DNA of 64,000 nt. Source: an uncultured delta proteobacterium (lineage in GTDB: Bacteria > Desulfobacterota > Syntrophia > Syntrophales > Smithellaceae). The position numbers and the translations under genes were made by a program. The stretch's first letter is position 1, and each line of letters begins with the position of its first letter. This document shows positions 3,276 through 13,184 of this stretch, piece after piece. The notes under the pieces are model-generated. The model worked only from the letters and a program-made list of their open reading frames with translations, was not told where the DNA came from and did no database searches. The stretch is taken from the NCBI GenBank assembly GCA_963753975.1, contig CAVWEH010000005.1:512001-576000 (forward strand), in the 5' to 3' direction.

Positions 3276-4049
3276 TCACTTTTGGCAACCAGGGCAATAA
3301 AAAGTGCTTCGTCCTCCCTGTTTTATCCTGCGTACTGTGCCTCCGCAAGTCATACATTGTTTTCCTTCTTGCCCGTAAACTTTCAATTCGTGCTGATTCT
3401 CACCTTTGCGGCCATACAAATCCCGCCAATCGGAAATCGACGTTCCTCTCTTGCCAATCGCTTTTTGGAGCACTATTTTAGCTTGATGAAATATCTTTCT
3501 CCACTCCGCTTCTTTCAATGTCGCCGCTGCTCTTTCGGGATGGATGCGCGCCTCGTATAAAATCTCACAGGCGTAAATATTGCCGATGCCGCTTACGGCA
3601 TTTTGATCCATTATCAGAGACTTCACTTTCGTCCTACGGCTGCCGTGAGCACTGACAAAATTTTTAAGGTCAAAATCCCTAAATATTTCACTCCCGGCAG
3701 CGTTTTTCTCTTCCTGCGACACTCTGATTGTCGCAAAACGGCGTGGATCTACCAGAAATACATTTCCGTCAGCAAATGACATCCTCCAGCGGCTGTGCTT
3801 ACGCTTTGACGAAATCTTCTGCCATAAAAGCCTTCCGGTCATGCGCAAATGAATAAAGATGATATTTCCGTCATCAAGAATGACCGCAATCATTTTGCCT
3901 TTGCGCTCTACTGCGACTATTCTTCTTCCCTTAATACCCTTTATGCTCTTTAATTTATCATCGAACACTGCGGTGGATAAAATTTCTTTGCCGCAAATTT
4001 TCTTTTTCAGTTGCCGACACAATGTTTCTACTTCGGGTAATTCAGGCAT
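3276..4049 (-). CDS. mutM: Formamidopyrimidine-DNA glycosylase
   Basis: MPELPEVE N-terminus (start moved to 4049), HLRMTG, GIGNIYACE and a C-terminal Zn finger. Confidence 0.95.
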   Translation of the reverse strand: MPELPEVETLCRQLKKKICGKEILSTAVFDDKLKSIKGIKGRRIVAVERKGKMIAVILDDGNIIFIHLRMTGRLLWQKISSKRKHSRWRMSFADGNVFLVDPRRFATIRVSQEEKNAAGSEIFRDFDLKNFVSAHGSRRTKVKSLIMDQNAVSGIGNIYACEILYEARIHPERAAATLKEAEWRKIFHQAKIVLQKAIGKRGTSISDWRDLYGRKGENQHELKVYGQEGKQCMTCGGTVRRIKQGGRSTFYCPGCQK

Positions 4050-4356
4050 TTTTTCGCTCCATGGCTGCCGGGACACATTTATCTTCTGCTTTTATTGTTA
4101 CTAAAAATAATTTCTTTTGCCTACTTCTTTTTTCGGTTTAACAAGTACAGCAGAAAAACCATCTAAGAAATTTTTTGAGGCTTTATGGATTAGATTTACA
4201 TAATTGTTTGCGCGACACGAAAAATTTTCAATTGATGTTTGATCAAGAATACGAAAATTGAAAATTCGGCGAACAAAAAAGCAAAGGACGCGAGAGAAAT
4301 TTATTTTAGAGAAAAATTTCATCTGTAAAAAAAAAGTCGTTTTATGAAAAAAAGTG

Positions 4357-4384
4357 TTGACAAATTTTTTTCTACGCGTACATT
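4357..4384 (+). promoter_or_regulatory. sigma70-type promoter candidate for the kamA cluster
   Basis: TTGACA-16 bp-TACATT inside a very AT-rich leader. Confidence 0.45.
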
Positions 4385-4457
4385 CAAATTATAGATTTTT
4401 ATTTTTTACATATAAAAAAATTTTTGCGGAGGAAAAACCTCCAGAAGGAGTAATCAA

Positions 4458-5768
4458 ATGGAAAACGAGACCCTATTTAATGAGGAGGCGGAACCTCCTG
4501 GTCCAGCGACCGGTCTTGTTAAAGTTAAAAATGAAGTAATTGACTTTTTCTCGATAGACGCAAAAACTAACCAGCCATATCCGGCTAAACAAAAGTCTGA
4601 CAGGATTATATTCCCTTTCAAAGATTCGGCTCGTTCACGTCTTTTCCGCAAACGACATTACCCAGACATAACCCGCTTCGAATGGTTCGACTGGCATTGG
4701 CAGCTGCGCAATGCCATAAGAGACGTCGACACATTATCGCAAATTATAAACTTGTCCGATAATGAACGTCAGGCGATGATGCACCATGCGGGAGCCCTGC
4801 CGGTTTCCATTACCCCATACTACGCGAGTTTGCTCGATCCTTTCGATGCTTCGGCTCCGCTGCGCCGCTGCGTTGTCCCGGTAGTCGATGAATGCCTCCA
4901 TACCGCGGGCGAAGAAGAAGATCCCTTGAACGAGGATGCCGATTCCCCAGTTCCCGGGATTGTGCATCGTTATCCTGACCGCGCTCTATTTTTGGTAACT
5001 GATTCCTGCTCTACCTATTGCCGTTATTGCACGCGTTCCCGCATTATTGAACGCAGTAATCAGTCCTATGTCGATTTCGAAAAATGGGAGAAGGCTATAG
5101 AGTATATCGAAAGCAATCAAAACATCCGAGATGTTCTTCTCTCTGGCGGTGATCCTTTAACCTTGTCCGACAACAAGCTGGAATGGCTGTTGATGCGCTT
5201 GCACAAAATTCCTCATATTGAACTTTTGCGTATCGGAACAAAAGTACCGGTTGTTTTGCCGCAGAGAATAACTCCGGCTTTAAGCGCCATGCTGAAAAAA
5301 TACCATCCTCTATGGATAAGTATTCATATTGCTCATCCCGATGAACTGACGCCGGAAATGAGCGCCGCGTGCATTCGCTTGGCCGATGCCGGAATTCCAC
5401 TGGGCAGTCAGACCGTGCTGCTTTCCGGCATTAATGATAACGTCGCCACAATGATGAGGCTGGTACACGGTCAATTGCAAATCCGGGTTCGTCCCTACTA
5501 TCTCTACCAGTGCGATCCCATTCCCGGCTCCTCTCATTTCCGCACACCGGTTAGTAAAGGACTGGAAATCATTCAGGGGCTACGCGGATATACAACGGGA
5601 TATGCCGTGCCTACTTATGTTGTCGATGCTCCCGGCGGTGGCGGAAAAATCCCTTTGCTTCCTGAACATGCTGTAGGCTGGGAAAAAGGCGACTTGCTTT
5701 TGCGCAATTATGAAGGAAATATTTTCCGTTATCCCGATAATCACGCAGAGCAAAAAGATATACATTAA
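4458..5768 (+). CDS. kamA: KamA-family radical SAM/PLP enzyme (lysine 2,3-aminomutase-like)
   Basis: HRYPDR, CSTYCRYC, LLSGGDPL, YLYQCD and VVDAPGGGGK (PLP lysine). Confidence 0.85.
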   Translation: MENETLFNEEAEPPGPATGLVKVKNEVIDFFSIDAKTNQPYPAKQKSDRIIFPFKDSARSRLFRKRHYPDITRFEWFDWHWQLRNAIRDVDTLSQIINLSDNERQAMMHHAGALPVSITPYYASLLDPFDASAPLRRCVVPVVDECLHTAGEEEDPLNEDADSPVPGIVHRYPDRALFLVTDSCSTYCRYCTRSRIIERSNQSYVDFEKWEKAIEYIESNQNIRDVLLSGGDPLTLSDNKLEWLLMRLHKIPHIELLRIGTKVPVVLPQRITPALSAMLKKYHPLWISIHIAHPDELTPEMSAACIRLADAGIPLGSQTVLLSGINDNVATMMRLVHGQLQIRVRPYYLYQCDPIPGSSHFRTPVSKGLEIIQGLRGYTTGYAVPTYVVDAPGGGGKIPLLPEHAVGWEKGDLLLRNYEGNIFRYPDNHAEQKDIH

Positions 5769-5807
5769 AATATTAGTTAATTAAAAGCCGGGGGTAGATA
5801 GTTCTAT

Positions 5808-6806
5808 TTGATTATGGCTGTTAAAAAGTTGAAAGTTGGATTGACTTATGATCTGCGAGACGATTACCTAAAAGAAGGATACTCTCTTGAAGAAACAGCC
5901 GAATTTGATCTGCCCGATACTATTGACGCAATTGAAAAAGTCATTTTAGATAACGGTTACAAAGCCTGCCGAATCGGCAATATTAAAGCTTTGGTCCGCC
6001 ATCTTGCGGCAGGAGAACGTTGGGACATTGTTTTCAATATTGCCGAAGGTCTGCATGGTTTTGGCCGCGAGGCACAAGTTCCCGCCCTGTTAGACGCTTA
6101 CAAGATTCCCTATACTTTCTCCGACCCATTAGGACAGGCCATTACACTCCATAAAGGAATGACTAAAAATATCATTCGCGGCCTGGGAATTCCCACTCCT
6201 GACTTTGCCGTAGTTGGTAATGTCAAAGATATTGCCAGAGTCAACCTTCTTTATCCTCTTTTTGCCAAGCCGATAGCGGAAGGTACGGGTAAAGGCATAA
6301 CACCTATGTCGAAAATAAATAATCGGGAAGAACTACATCATGTTTGCCTGAACCTTTTACAAAACTTTAACCAACCGGTTCTTGTAGAAACTTATCTATC
6401 CGGCCGCGAATTTACAGTGGGTATACTAGGGACAGGTAAAGATGCCCGAGCCTTGGGTACGCTAGAGGTTATTCTCAAACCTATCGCGGAAAAAAATGCG
6501 TATTCTTATGAAAACAAGGAACACTATGATAAAGTGGTCCAATATGTTCTGGTTAATGATGATGAAGCCAAAAAAGCGATGGAAATATCACTTATGGCCT
6601 GGCAAGCTCTGGATTTAAAGGATGCCGGCCGTATTGACTTACGTTCTGACGCTCGCGGCATGCCTCATTTTATGGAAGTTAATCCTCTCGCCGGCTTAAA
6701 CCCCATACGTTCGGATTTGCCTATTTTGTGCACTCAATTAGGCATGAGCTATCATGAACTAATAAGTTCCATCATTGAATCGGCCATAAAGCGCGCTAAT
6801 AACTAA
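5808..6806 (+). CDS. D-Ala-D-Ala ligase-like ATP-grasp enzyme 1
   Basis: VFNIAEG, KPIAEGTGKGI, GREFTV, RIDLR and MEVNPLAGL. Atypical N-terminus (GLTYDLR). Confidence 0.85.
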   Translation: MIMAVKKLKVGLTYDLRDDYLKEGYSLEETAEFDLPDTIDAIEKVILDNGYKACRIGNIKALVRHLAAGERWDIVFNIAEGLHGFGREAQVPALLDAYKIPYTFSDPLGQAITLHKGMTKNIIRGLGIPTPDFAVVGNVKDIARVNLLYPLFAKPIAEGTGKGITPMSKINNREELHHVCLNLLQNFNQPVLVETYLSGREFTVGILGTGKDARALGTLEVILKPIAEKNAYSYENKEHYDKVVQYVLVNDDEAKKAMEISLMAWQALDLKDAGRIDLRSDARGMPHFMEVNPLAGLNPIRSDLPILCTQLGMSYHELISSIIESAIKRANN

Positions 6807-6846
6807 TCATCAATCCAGATTGGCTGAATATTCTTCATGAAAGATT

Positions 6847-7842
6847 ATGATGAAAAAAATACTAATTTTGCACAGTGATATTTCGCCGGATGCCACAGAG
6901 GATGAACTTGATTGTCTCAAACAAGCCGAGACAATTGAAGCAGCCTTGCGCCGTCTGGATTACGAGCCCACGCTTTTTCCTTTTGGCCTTGATTTAAACC
7001 AAACGATAAAAAAGCTGAAATTCTTAAAACCGCAAGTCGTTTTCAACATAGCGGAAACTTTGGCCGCCAAAGGCAGTTTAATTTATTTCGCTCCCGCTAT
7101 TCTCGATATTCTGCAGATTCCTTATACCGGTTGCGGCACGCAAGCCTTGTTCCAAACATCAAACAAACCCCTGGCCAAAAAAATCATGTATGATGCCCAT
7201 ATTGCCACTCCGGCCTGGGTAACGCAAGAAGAGTTCAGCTCTCAAACTGCTCCTGCTAATATATATTTAATCAAATCTTCATGGGAACACGCTTCTATCG
7301 GTTTGGATGAAAACTCCCTCATTCGTTATACGAATAATGAAAATCTTTTGAAGGAAATGATCCGCCGCAAAGAAAAACTCGGCGGTTCTTGTTATGCCGA
7401 AGCCTATATTGACGGGCGTGAATTCAGTATAGCCCTTATCTCCGCTCCATCCGGTGTGATGGTTTTGCCGGTAGCCGAGATGCTTTTTCGGGATTATGCT
7501 CCGGATAAACCAAAGCTTGTGGACTATAAAGCCAAATGGGTGGCGGATTCTTTTGAGTACAATAACACAATACAAAAATTTGATTTCAATGAAACCGATG
7601 CTAACCTTATATCGGCCATGCGTGAAATTGCGCTGCGTTGTTGGCATCTTTTCGGTTTGCGCGGATACGCGCGAGTCGATTTTCGCGTTGATAATAACGG
7701 CAAGCCATGGGTACTGGAAATCAATTCAAATCCTTGCTTGTCGACTGATGCCGGTTTCGCCGCTGCGCTGGAACAGGCAAAAATAAAATATCACGAAGCT
7801 ATCGAGCTCATTATCAACGATGCTTTGAAATCACGGGTATGA
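6847..7842 (+). CDS. D-Ala-D-Ala ligase-like ATP-grasp enzyme 2
   Basis: VFNIAE, PYTG, EAYIDGREF, GYARVDFR and LEINSNPCL. Confidence 0.85.
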   Translation: MMKKILILHSDISPDATEDELDCLKQAETIEAALRRLDYEPTLFPFGLDLNQTIKKLKFLKPQVVFNIAETLAAKGSLIYFAPAILDILQIPYTGCGTQALFQTSNKPLAKKIMYDAHIATPAWVTQEEFSSQTAPANIYLIKSSWEHASIGLDENSLIRYTNNENLLKEMIRRKEKLGGSCYAEAYIDGREFSIALISAPSGVMVLPVAEMLFRDYAPDKPKLVDYKAKWVADSFEYNNTIQKFDFNETDANLISAMREIALRCWHLFGLRGYARVDFRVDNNGKPWVLEINSNPCLSTDAGFAAALEQAKIKYHEAIELIINDALKSRV

Positions 7843-8112
7843 ACCCCAAGCAAGCTGTGGAGGTATTATACTCCTGCTTTATACGGGACAATTCGACCTG
7901 CAAGCTTCAGCAGTGACGTGACCCTTTAGGTTTTGCACTTTGTTTCTGAAACTTGGGTCTCACTACAATATAGCTCCACTTAGCTTCGCACGTGGGATAA
8001 TTCAACTTACAGATATTACTGCACTGCGTTTGTGGAGCACCTCTGTAAGGAGCCGAAAGCTATTTTCAAAGACACGACATCCCGTGATGGGATAATATCT
8101 GAGTTTCATTAG
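7830..8112. repeat. Modular non-coding repeat, family R1, copy A
   Basis: Shares blocks with 62912-63131 (tcacgggtatgaaccc; tgcactttgtttctgaa.c/ttgggtctca.ta; aattc.acttaca) and, inverted, with 33685-33847. Confidence 0.85.
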
Positions 8113-8160
8113 AATTGAAGTTTCACAAATGAAAAGGGAGCTAAATGCTCAAACACTTTT

Positions 8161-8649
8161 ATGGCTAATCTTCAAATAACATTCAGACAACAAATCAAAC
8201 AAACTGACGTCGAGGCAATTGAAAAGATTGTGAGCTCCAGCGGTTTCTTTTCTTCCGCGGAAATCGATATTGCGTTAGAATTAGCTGAGGAAAAATTAGC
8301 GGAAGGCACTGCCAGTTCTTACCAGTTTTTATTTGCCGAAGTCGAAAATATTGTCTGCGGTTATAGCTGTTTCGGCTTAATACCGATGACTTCCGCAAGC
8401 TACGATCTTTATTGGATCGCCGTAAATGAAAATATACGTGGCCAAAGTATAGGGAAAAAACTGCTGTCTAAATCTGAGGAAATTATCTTTAGTTTAGGCG
8501 GCAAACGTATTTATGTGGAGACATCTTCCCGCAATCAATATCGTCCAACACACAATTTTTATGAAAGTTGTGGCTATCGTAAGGAAGCAATTTTAAAAGA
8601 TTTCTACTCCCCGGGCGACAGTAAAATTATTTATTCCAAAGAGCTCTAA
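8161..8649 (+). CDS. GNAT family N-acetyltransferase
   Basis: YDLYWIAV...RGQSIGKKLL, IYVETS and FYESCGY. Confidence 0.9.
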   Translation: MANLQITFRQQIKQTDVEAIEKIVSSSGFFSSAEIDIALELAEEKLAEGTASSYQFLFAEVENIVCGYSCFGLIPMTSASYDLYWIAVNENIRGQSIGKKLLSKSEEIIFSLGGKRIYVETSSRNQYRPTHNFYESCGYRKEAILKDFYSPGDSKIIYSKEL

Positions 8650-8752
8650 AACCATTTAGCCGTCATGTTAAACAGCTTGCATTTTCCCCAATAATTAGCT
8701 AGAGGACTGCCTGAATTATTATCGCGAATTAAATTCTGAGGAGGAATCTTTC

Positions 8753-9373
8753 ATGCGTTTGTTTCCCAAAACGGAGAATTTTTTCGAATATTTCGAAGAG
8801 CTGGCCGGGAAAATCGAGGAAGGCGGTAATCTTTTTCTGGAAATGGCTCAAACTCGTGATTATTCCGACGTGAGAGTTGCCAAGCTTAAGGAAATTGAGC
8901 ACGAAGCGGACGGCATTACCCATAAGACATACGAAAAAATGCATAAGACATTTCTCACGCCAATAGATCGTGAGGATATTTACGCGCTTGTTAATAAAAT
9001 GGATAGTATTATGGATGTTATTGAAGCCACTGCTATCCGCATTCATCTCTATAATGTTAAAAAACCGGCTGATGAAATCATCAAACAGGCACAAATCCTG
9101 AATGATGCGATAAAAAAAATCAAAAGCATTGTCCACGCAATGCGCAACATGAAGAACTCTGCAATGATCCTTAACCACTGCGTGGAAATTAATACCCTGG
9201 AAAACGCCGGCGATGTTGTTTTAAGAACTATAATGGCCAATCTTTTTGAAAACGAGAAAGATGCTATTGAGCTTATAAAATGGAAAGATATTTTTCAACT
9301 TCTGGAAGAAGCAATAGACGTATGCGAGGATGTTTCCAATATCGTAGAAGGGATTGTCCTGAAACATGCTTGA
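8753..9373 (+). CDS. DUF47 / PhoU-like Pit accessory protein
   Basis: EHEADGI, FLTPIDREDI and ENAGD motifs; overlaps the pit gene. Confidence 0.9.
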   Translation: MRLFPKTENFFEYFEELAGKIEEGGNLFLEMAQTRDYSDVRVAKLKEIEHEADGITHKTYEKMHKTFLTPIDREDIYALVNKMDSIMDVIEATAIRIHLYNVKKPADEIIKQAQILNDAIKKIKSIVHAMRNMKNSAMILNHCVEINTLENAGDVVLRTIMANLFENEKDAIELIKWKDIFQLLEEAIDVCEDVSNIVEGIVLKHA

Positions 9374-11918: not shown

Positions 11919-13184
11919 ATGGCGGAAAAGCTGTTGCCTTTTACAAAAAAACAAGTCGAAAAAATCATCGAAAAATATCCCACGCCCTTTCACATTTATG
12001 ACGAGAAGGCTATTCGCCAAAACGCACGTGATTTTAAAAAAACTTTTTCCTGGAATGAAGGATTTAAAGAGTTTTTTGCTGTCAAGGCCACGCCTAATCC
12101 CTATTTGATGAAAATCATGCAAAAGGAAGGTTTTGGTGCCGATTGCAGCTCGCTTGCAGAATTGATTTTGGCCCAAAAAACGGGTATCACCGGTGAAGAA
12201 ATTATGTTTTCTTCCAATGATACGCCCGCGGTTGAATTCGTCAAGGCTCGGGAGTTAAACGCGACGATTAATTTGGATGATATTATCCACATTCCTTATT
12301 TGGAAAAATATGCCGGACTGCCGGAACTGATTTGCTTTCGCTATAATCCCGGTCCTCTAAAGAAGGGTAATATTATTATCGGCCATCCCGAAGAAGCTAA
12401 ATTTGGCTTTACCCGCGAGCAGCTCTTTGAAGGTTACAAAATATGTAAGGCAAAAGGAATTAAACGTTTTGGCATTCATACGATGGTTGCTTCCAACGAA
12501 TTGGATGCCGCTTATTTTGTGGAAACAGCGGAAATTTTGTTTCAGCTTGTTGCTGACATTTCCCGGCAATTAAAAATCTGTTTTGAGTTTGTAAATTTGG
12601 GTGGAGGCGTGGGAATTCCCTATCGCCCGGAACAGCAGCGTATCGATCTTGCCGCAATAAACCGTGGCGTCAAAGAAAAATATGAAAAAATTATTGTTGC
12701 CCATCGCCTCGCGCCGATTAAAATCTTTACAGAATGCGGCCGTTATATTACCGGTCCCTATGGTTATCTTGTTTCCCGTGTCCTGCATATTAAGGATACC
12801 TATAAGAAATTCGCCGGCCTGGACGCCAGTATGGCGAACTTAATGCGTCCGGCACTTTACGGCGCGTATCATCATATCACGGTCATGGGCAAAGAAAAAC
12901 AACCGCAAAATATTCTTTATGATGTTACAGGTTCGCTTTGTGAAAACAACGATAAATTTGCCATCGACCGTCCTCTACCCAAACTGGAAAACGGGGATAT
13001 TATCGTCATTCACGATGCCGGTGCGCACGGCTTTGCTATGGGCTCCAATTATAACGGGAAACTCCGGTCCGCAGAGTTACTTTTAAGAGAAAACGGCGAA
13101 GTCGTGCAAATTCGACGCGCTGAAACCATCAACGATTATCTTGCTACCTTAGACTTTGGCGGTTTAAATAACTTTGCAGTGTAA
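11919..13184 (+). CDS. lysA: Diaminopimelate decarboxylase
   Basis: YPTP, FAVKA, NLGGG, ECGRY, GSLCENND, GAHG and SNYN. Confidence 0.9.
   Translation: MAEKLLPFTKKQVEKIIEKYPTPFHIYDEKAIRQNARDFKKTFSWNEGFKEFFAVKATPNPYLMKIMQKEGFGADCSSLAELILAQKTGITGEEIMFSSNDTPAVEFVKARELNATINLDDIIHIPYLEKYAGLPELICFRYNPGPLKKGNIIIGHPEEAKFGFTREQLFEGYKICKAKGIKRFGIHTMVASNELDAAYFVETAEILFQLVADISRQLKICFEFVNLGGGVGIPYRPEQQRIDLAAINRGVKEKYEKIIVAHRLAPIKIFTECGRYITGPYGYLVSRVLHIKDTYKKFAGLDASMANLMRPALYGAYHHITVMGKEKQPQNILYDVTGSLCENNDKFAIDRPLPKLENGDIIVIHDAGAHGFAMGSNYNGKLRSAELLLRENGEVVQIRRAETINDYLATLDFGGLNNFAV

Follow-up and report, generated by a model that had tools for sequence, protein, structure and literature searches.

In the AblAB system, a lysine 2,3-aminomutase is encoded in an operon with a GNAT-family N-acetyltransferase (PMC1224877 and PMC3543383). 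In the EpmA/EpmB system, an aminomutase provides the beta-lysine that is then joined to an amine as an amide (PMC12856214). Here we describe a module that resembles both systems, as well as the D-Ala-D-Ala ligases (Ddl) and their Van relatives, in part. It lies in a stretch of 64,000 nucleotides (henceforth the window, to which all positions refer) from an uncultured delta proteobacterium of the family Smithellaceae (assembly GCA_963753975.1, contig CAVWEH010000005.1, positions 512,001 to 576,000 of the forward strand). The module consists of four genes on the + strand: a KamA-family 2,3-aminomutase of the radical S-adenosylmethionine/pyridoxal phosphate (PLP) type (gene 1; 4458-5768, 436 amino acids), two Ddl-fold ATP-grasp amide ligases (ligase 1; 5808-6806, 332 amino acids, with ATG 5814 as the likelier start; and ligase 2; 6847-7842, 331 amino acids) and a GNAT N-acetyltransferase of the 2R7H family (gene 4; 8161-8649, 162 amino acids). 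A preliminary description of the window, made from its letters alone, had noted a kamA-like gene, two divergent Ddl-like ligases and a GNAT in one orientation, and all four open reading frames were confirmed in place. We conclude that the module is linked, widespread and apparently uncharacterised, and that it is built from known enzyme folds.

The differences from the AblAB system are of three kinds: the 2R7H-type GNAT has no match to the AblB model TIGR03827 (nor was there one anywhere in the 95%-complete genome, while the controls M. acetivorans and B. subtilis both matched), the aminomutase is shorter at its C-terminus and falls below the AblA cut-off, and two ligases are core parts of the module. 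The earlier view that the module is distinct from AblA+AblB was therefore borne out. The ligases share with the Ddl and Van enzymes their fold (template modelling score ~0.75 to DdlB) and the residues for ATP, Mg and the acyl phosphate, but they are only 19-26% identical to them, score below all cut-offs, are changed at the positions of DdlB His63, Ser150, Tyr216, Ser281 and Leu282, and form two paralogs kept paired or fused, the canonical ddl of the genome (368 bits) being found at another locus. The EpmA ligase, by contrast, is a paralog of LysRS and not an ATP-grasp enzyme. The window's genome carries a KamA paralog beside efp and epmA at a separate locus (contig C4), and an EpmA-like gene was found in 29 of the 53 host-phylum genomes with a close ligase 2 (28 of them over the cut-off) compared with 120 of 301 overall (counted by hand). 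Both systems co-occur, and the idea that the cassette substitutes for EpmA is not supported. A further likeness is to blasticidin S biosynthesis, in which a KamA-type beta-amino acid is coupled to an amine by an ATP-grasp ligase (BlsG/BlsI); the present module differs in being compact and common in anaerobes, with no nucleoside, nonribosomal peptide synthetase, resistance or export genes seen recurring beside it. As to lysine fermentation, a beta-lysine 5,6-aminomutase (kamDE, PF09043) had no match in the genome, but the control genomes gave none either. No description of the operon was found in the open full-text literature on the module, its chemistry and the 2R7H protein (as judged from listings and the openings of abstracts); PMC11201294 mentions ablAB only, and PMC12361552 (B. 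subtilis kamA carrying a phage insertion) and PMC8836040 (on the phosphatase Dde_3047) proved irrelevant to the module.

A single-protein scan with ligase 1 yielded 59 GTDB loci from records titled Syntrophales, Spirochaetales, Bacteroidales, Gammaproteobacteria, Lentisphaerales, planctomycetes and others, the closest of which (90-92% identity in ligase 1) were titled Smithellaceae or delta proteobacterium. Among the 39 loci with at least 3 kb on both sides, 34 contained KamA, 33 ligase 2 and 31 the GNAT; for the 23 non-Smithella loci the corresponding numbers were 18, 17 and 15. A metagenome set of 28 flanked loci, taken from the best 80 of at least 596 ligase 2 matches, contained KamA in 24, ligase 1 in 26 and the GNAT in 23 cases. 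The four-gene grouping exceeds chance. Within the host's phylum, 125 of 301 genomes had a match to the ligase 2 profile at E 1e-40, and in 53 the match was better than 1e-90; in the phylum of one Bacteroidales record (L040), a ligase 1 relative was found in 69 of 251 genomes at 1e-60; 20 regions from the latter phylum comprised 9 with the order ligase 1-ligase 2-GNAT-KamA, 4 with a ligase followed by KamA and 7 with a lone ligase.

Gene fusions also join parts of the module. Ligase 1 and ligase 2 were fused in 18 of 150 representatives, the 120 matches listed for the fusion query included 37 KamA-ligase 1 and 4 ligase 1-KamA proteins, and ligase 2 was fused to the GNAT in three loci (L049, L151 and L161). 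The GNAT travels and fuses with ligase 2 even where KamA is absent. In a tree of 156 dereplicated ligase sequences (out of 337; deep support was weak), ligase 1 types clustered apart from ligase 2 types, each with its own motifs. Plasmids gave no ligase 1 match at E 1e-30. The suggestion of a linked, uncharacterised pathway, for which co-occurrence across phyla had been named as a check, is supported by this recurrence in several phyla and by the fusions among the module's parts.

We found that gene 1 belongs to the KamA family (TIGR00238; 354 bits, cut-off 199). Its best score among the more specific models was to the lysine 2,3-aminomutase AblA (TIGR03820; 488.3 bits, cut-off 525.4, model positions 4-362 of 417), and it also remained under the cut-offs for the glutamate (TIGR04368; 418.7 bits, cut-off 650), arginine (TIGR04468; 393.2 bits, cut-off 600) and EpmB (TIGR03821; 257 bits, cut-off 369) models. 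The C-terminal part of TIGR03820 is missing from gene 1, whose product ends at about residue 376 of the 416-residue C. subterminale lysine 2,3-aminomutase 2A5H, its sole PDB sequence match (E 1.7e-132). The 2A5H residues C125/C129/C132, R134, D293, D330 and K337 are all kept, as C184/C188/C191, R193, D353, D390 and K397 (counted on the printed alignment); we take R134, D293 and D330 to be substrate contacts and K337 to hold PLP. Among 42 dereplicated KamA relatives, CxxxCxxCxR and QCD were retained in every one and VD.P.GGGK in 40. Given that the substrate residues are kept and that the AblA model scores best, the substrate is probably basic, with lysine most likely and beta-lysine as the product; the preliminary description had read a basic substrate from the retained motifs, and the residues and model scores (488 vs 419 and 393) agree with it. 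The D293/D330 pair itself does not single out lysine among basic substrates, as both residues are also present in the EpmB-type paralog of this genome. As a separate observation, one locus has a second, tandem KamA (L038:2917-4455) with Glu at the D330 position and without the Glu-Pro-Pro motif described below, possibly with another substrate.

Both ligases have a Dala_Dala_lig_C domain and are ~26% identical to each other. Their scores to TIGR01205 (124 bits for ligase 1 and 91 for ligase 2; cut-off 245.65) and PRK01372 (154 and 109 bits; cut-off 243) are below threshold, and the structural models (mean predicted local distance difference test scores of 91.8 and 92.2, respectively) had only Ddl enzymes as best fold matches. 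Each combines the features of a Ddl-fold ATP-grasp enzyme, i.e., the fold, two Lys, a Glu, R-x-D and E-x-N: ligase 1 retains K116, K154, E194, R275, D277, E290, N292, G296 and S302, and ligase 2 retains K107, K143, E185, R276, D278, E291 and N293. Databases label both as D-Ala-D-Ala ligases, which we consider a mislabelling; as previously noted they diverge from Ddl and are not canonical Ddl enzymes, being below all cut-offs in a genome with its own ddl elsewhere.

The E. coli DdlB residues His63, Ser150, Tyr216, Ser281 and Leu282 are not kept as a set in either ligase. In ligase 1, E80 takes the place of His63, E238 that of Tyr216 and D303 that of Leu282, whereas in ligase 2 Ala149, Trp231, Cys297, Ala302 and Gly303 occupy the positions of Ser150, Tyr216, Gly276, Ser281 and Leu282 (alignment to 1IOV). 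These readings combine DdlB residue roles with alignments at ~20-25% identity; we take Ser281 to be the binder of the acceptor carboxylate, and the roles of the other Ddl residues are likewise assumed. Glu at the His63 position, found in both ligases and in 126 of 131 ligase 1 relatives, would suit a donor with an extra amine. Because the Ser281 equivalent is kept (Ser302; 119 of 131 relatives) and Asp stands at the Leu282 position (Asp303; 107 of 131, with Cys in one subclade), ligase 1 is suggested to use an amino acid as acceptor, a basic one in this clade. The ligase 2 family has Ala/Ser/Gly-Gly in place of Ser281-Leu282, and since the DdlB acceptor-site residues, including the carboxylate-binding serine, are replaced, its acceptor is suggested to lack a carboxylate. 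A predicted complex of the two ligases scored 0.01, giving no evidence either way.

Related ligases also occur in other settings. A third, stand-alone ligase-2-like paralog lies in the window's own genome beside a CoA-transferase/GNAT fusion (L060:4966-6015, G000:C2), and paralogs of this type were seen in other genomes of the host's family. One ligase-2-like gene (L159:1496-6844) belongs to another kind of cluster, which also encodes a glutathione-synthetase-like ligase and a QEGLA-motif protein and has a Peptidase_Mx-like neighbour. A ligase 1 domain is fused to a eukaryotic-looking leucine-rich-repeat protein (P0101; 980 amino acids), and a lone relative with 43% identity to ligase 1 lies among P450s and a halogenase-like gene in a Streptomyces cluster (L056:6001-6999), possibly recruited for a secondary metabolite.

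The best and only close solved match of gene 4 was 2R7H (E 2.5e-38), deposited as a putative D-alanine N-acetyltransferase, and database entries label the GNAT as a D-alanine N-acetyltransferase. Invariant acidic or aromatic residues in its family are D16, E34, D82, W85 and D153.

Genes found beside some copies of the operon point to polyamines. In 12 of the 46 flanked non-Smithella loci (5/23 GTDB and 7/23 metagenome), a GNAT-deacetylase fusion lies within or beside the operon, and the same was true of 4 of 40 host-phylum loci, hand-picked from 150 matches listed. The four best bacterial PDB matches of the deacetylase domain were acetylpolyamine amidohydrolases (9GKZ, 6PHR, 3MEN and 3Q9B; E 1e-68 to 1e-57), from which this accessory, which is not in the window, differs in being fused behind a GNAT domain. 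In 10 of the 40 host-phylum loci (from 6 families), the nearest recognised gene ahead of ligase 1 is a co-oriented one for a pyruvoyl arginine decarboxylase, and these loci also carry an agmatinase and/or a deoxyhypusine/homospermidine-synthase-like gene. The decarboxylase-ligase 1 gap is 21-30 bp in four loci (L144, L146, L171 and L175), while in some others several hundred bp, or a single small gene, intervene; in an eleventh locus (L152) the polyamine genes lie ahead of KamA. In several of the polyamine-linked loci, the gene after the GNAT encodes a PmtA-like methyltransferase. When eight polyamine-linked genomes were checked, seven had a KamA of 52-55% identity elsewhere, four of which keep Glu-Pro-Pro, and homologs of all three polyamine genes occur in the window's genome, none of them linked to the operon. 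In three genomes with ligases after polyamine genes (L186, L187 and L189), a small protein whose start looks MerR-like, as judged from its first residues only, is encoded ahead of the unlinked KamA.

Taken together, we consider a reversibly acetylated beta-lysyl-polyamine amide to be the leading candidate for the product, with a rough probability of 0.4. Under this proposal, the aminomutase would convert L-lysine to beta-lysine, a step well supported by homology. Ligase 1 would then activate the beta-lysine carboxylate as an acyl phosphate and couple it to an amino-acid acceptor, which in this clade would probably be basic and held by Ser302/Asp303. Ligase 2 may then add a carboxylate-free amine as a cap, for instance putrescine or homospermidine, although which ligase acts first is a guess. 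The GNAT would N-acetylate a free amine, the fused GNAT/acetylpolyamine-amidohydrolase, where present, would reverse this, and acetylation would thereby control the charge of a small cationic amide, whose likely role is that of a polyamine-like stress or nucleic-acid-binding solute. Establishing the product's identity would define, for anaerobes, a new fate of beta-lysine and two new specificities of amide ligases, and possibly a new polyamine conjugate as well.

Several observations weigh against a polyamine conjugate. The second 20 of the 40 host-phylum loci were picked from a score range that already showed polyamine linkage, and the linked loci are confined to one ligase 1 subclade, so the linkage may represent only one or two events. 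In that subclade Asp303 is replaced by Cys, and one of its polyamine-linked genomes (G266, 94% complete) had no KamA match. Within the window's own ligase 1 subclade, polyamine linkage was seen in L091 only, on the opposite strand, and no close copy of the amidohydrolase accessory turned up in the window's genome, the best being 30%. Furthermore, ligase 1 stands alone in 5 of the 23 non-Smithella GTDB loci, lone copies being found in some planctomycete, Elusimicrobia and Streptomyces loci.

The strongest rival, a somewhat doubtful one in our view, is that the ligases use amino acids only, forming a beta-lysine di- or tripeptide (e.g., beta-lysine oligomers) that the GNAT acetylates into a solute. 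Ddl-fold ligases usually join amino acids, ligase 1 relatives largely keep Ser302 and Asp303, and an acetylated beta-lysine oligomer could also suit an acetylpolyamine-type hydrolase; set against this are the Ala/Ser/Gly-Gly of the ligase 2 family at Ser281-Leu282 and the operonic polyamine-synthesis genes of one subclade. The acetylated di- or tripeptide of the preliminary description is a possible product, but an amine or polyamine as acceptor agrees better with the accessory genes and with the acceptor site of ligase 2.

Less likely still is that the module beta-lysylates and acetylates a macromolecule, i.e., a protein lysine (such as that of EF-P), a lipid or a cell-wall precursor. A carboxylate-free acceptor would fit a protein lysine, an acetylase paired with a deacetylase is typical for protein switches, the PmtA-like methyltransferase comes after the GNAT in several of the loci linked to polyamine genes, and the diproline site described below links expression to EF-P-type rescue. 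However, the genome has epmB-efp-epmA and a canonical ddl elsewhere, the EpmA-like gene co-occurs with close ligase 2 as counted above, and efp lies near the ligases in only two related loci among those fetched for the neighbour survey, with one gene between. No mur or wall gene was present among the neighbour families recurring in at least 3 loci (9 of 47 were scanned with Pfam, the rest judged by first residues or earlier scans).

An aminomutase acting on arginine or ornithine, with a beta-arginyl or beta-ornithyl amide as product, seems quite improbable. It would be in keeping with the gene 1 score below the AblA cut-off (488 vs 525), with D293/D330, which indicate only a basic side chain, and with the arginine decarboxylase and agmatinase adjoining some copies, but the lysine model scores 95 bits higher than the arginine one, the active-site stretch stays close to 2A5H, and a cassette-linked KamA relative (L145) exceeds the AblA cut-off at 531 bits. 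Finally, although AblAB is a documented osmolyte route in this phylum, in Pelobacter carbinolicus (PMC3543383), it is very unlikely that KamA and the GNAT simply make N-epsilon-acetyl-beta-lysine with the ligases as passengers or spare Ddl enzymes, given a GNAT without a TIGR03827 match that travels and fuses with ligase 2 also without KamA, the existence of KamA-ligase fusions, and the altered DdlB Ser150/Tyr216 positions in the ligases.

Beyond its enzymes, the module carries a conserved Glu-Pro-Pro in the N-terminal tail of KamA (codons 12-14 of gene 1, GAA CCT CCT, 4491..4499 on the + strand), a candidate translational control site. The tail is acidic and variable in gene 1 and otherwise unalignable among relatives, yet Glu-Pro-Pro was found in 35 of 42 KamA proteins dereplicated at 80% (mean 2.9 and maximum 10 in 2000 shuffles), often at codons 11-14. 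The first Pro codon was CCT in 31 of 37 cases against 6.9 +/- 2.3 expected from each gene's usage, the second being mixed; for comparison, CCT was the first Pro codon in 8 of 35 Glu-Pro-Pro occurrences in the genome and in 7 of 38 in the loci's other genes. Within the 390 nt that precede the KamA core there were 32 GARCCTCC words, every one of them in the KamA frame, and in a later locus set CCT came first in 10 of 15. The motif was seen where KamA is first or alone: it was present in 8 of 14 loci with KamA first (plus one Asp-Pro-Pro) but in none of 16 cassette KamA proteins that follow the ligases, 4 of which have another Pro-Pro with CCT first. A nominal 17th locus of this type (L168) was left out, being an unrelated 39% paralog. 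Four loci with a ligase followed by KamA (L218-L221) have Pro-Pro near the start, with CCT first in 4/4, perhaps a convergent form of the signal.

We consider a ribosome pause or slip site, i.e., a candidate translational control element, to be the likeliest reading of this motif because Krafczyk et al. (PMC8129111) report that CCC/U-C favours +1 slippage, that E. coli selects against this context in its proline pairs and that slow pairs are preferred near starts. The Glu-Pro-Pro/CCU-C site is a small element that keeps a codon context which E. coli selects against (PMC8129111). The sequence features of an EF-P-dependent diproline/CCU-C site are present, namely an in-frame Pro-Pro near the start with CCU as first codon, and the site probably limits aminomutase synthesis via ribosome pausing or non-productive +1 slippage. 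A rival reading is an RNA hairpin, since the CCTCC at 4491..4499 can pair with GGAGG at 4482-4488, and GGAGG preceded CCTCC in 12 of 29 cases compared with 4.8 +/- 1.7 under the null (0 of 1000 recodings; related sequences inflate the count). By contrast, the looser GGAG/GAGG count was not enriched (17 vs 14.9), and the predicted pairing partners vary. A tail that docks KamA on ligase 1 was weakened as an explanation, Glu-Pro-Pro being kept in 16 of 32 scorable KamA-ligase fusions versus 61 of 78 stand-alone proteins; Pro-Pro often persists when Glu changes. We also rejected a productive frameshift product, as the +1/-1 frames after the site are variable in length, mostly short and not conserved.

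Polyamine-sensitive ribosome stalling and frameshifting are known in eukaryotes. A wider reading of the module, which we regard as unlikely in its entirety, is that it makes a widespread, undescribed class of polyamines by means of a Ddl-derived ligase pair, with an acetylation/deacetylation switch and slippery diproline feedback control; if true, it would be a bacterial counterpart of these eukaryotic mechanisms.

Upstream of gene 1, the best + strand match to a sigma-70-type promoter (TTGACA-16 nt-TACATT; 4357..4384, 10/12) is a lead only, as promoter-like matches in the region (9 vs 9.7 in shuffles), like terminator counts, are at chance level. It is followed on the + strand by a small GGAGG/CCTCC hairpin and a Shine-Dalgarno-like AAGGAG (4428..4450), paired in the fold of 4390-4530 (z -3.0); an Rfam scan of 4000-8800 returned no match. 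The 318-bp gap upstream of the GNAT is occupied by a multicopy intergenic repeat of ~300 bp (7827..8134, boundaries approximate, no strand assigned), of which fragments recur at 61 places in the 2.4-Mb genome. This strain-specific insertion lies outside the conserved module and is not present in the three closest relatives (L001, L002 and L022). It resembles a composite of the miniature inverted-repeat transposable element/repetitive extragenic palindromic type, took the place of the native stop region of ligase 2 and may influence read-through to the GNAT. A DUF486 remnant in this gap was rejected, with no match found and the gap being the repeat.

The lysA gene starts at 11919, 3.3 kb downstream of the module, as the preliminary description had mentioned. 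A part for it in the pathway is not supported: lysA follows the cassette in 15 of the 39 flanked GTDB loci but in 0/23 of the non-Smithella ones and 0/23 of the more distant flanked metagenome loci, so its adjacency reflects local synteny only. PiT/DUF47 genes (2/23 outside Smithella-like loci) and a B12 radical SAM gene were likewise rejected as pathway members. A DUF486 (DMT_6) small membrane protein, a possible product exporter, is encoded inside or just after the operon in other loci (L007:8020-8367 and L052:3511-3876), this neighbour being seen in several Smithella loci and one Rikenella locus. Another family, present in five loci, is a CxxCxxCC zinc/iron-chelating protein encoded between KamA and ligase 1 (L048:5508-6026 and L106:4359-4919), and a similar-looking Cys-rich domain is fused to ligase 1 in one protein (P0015).

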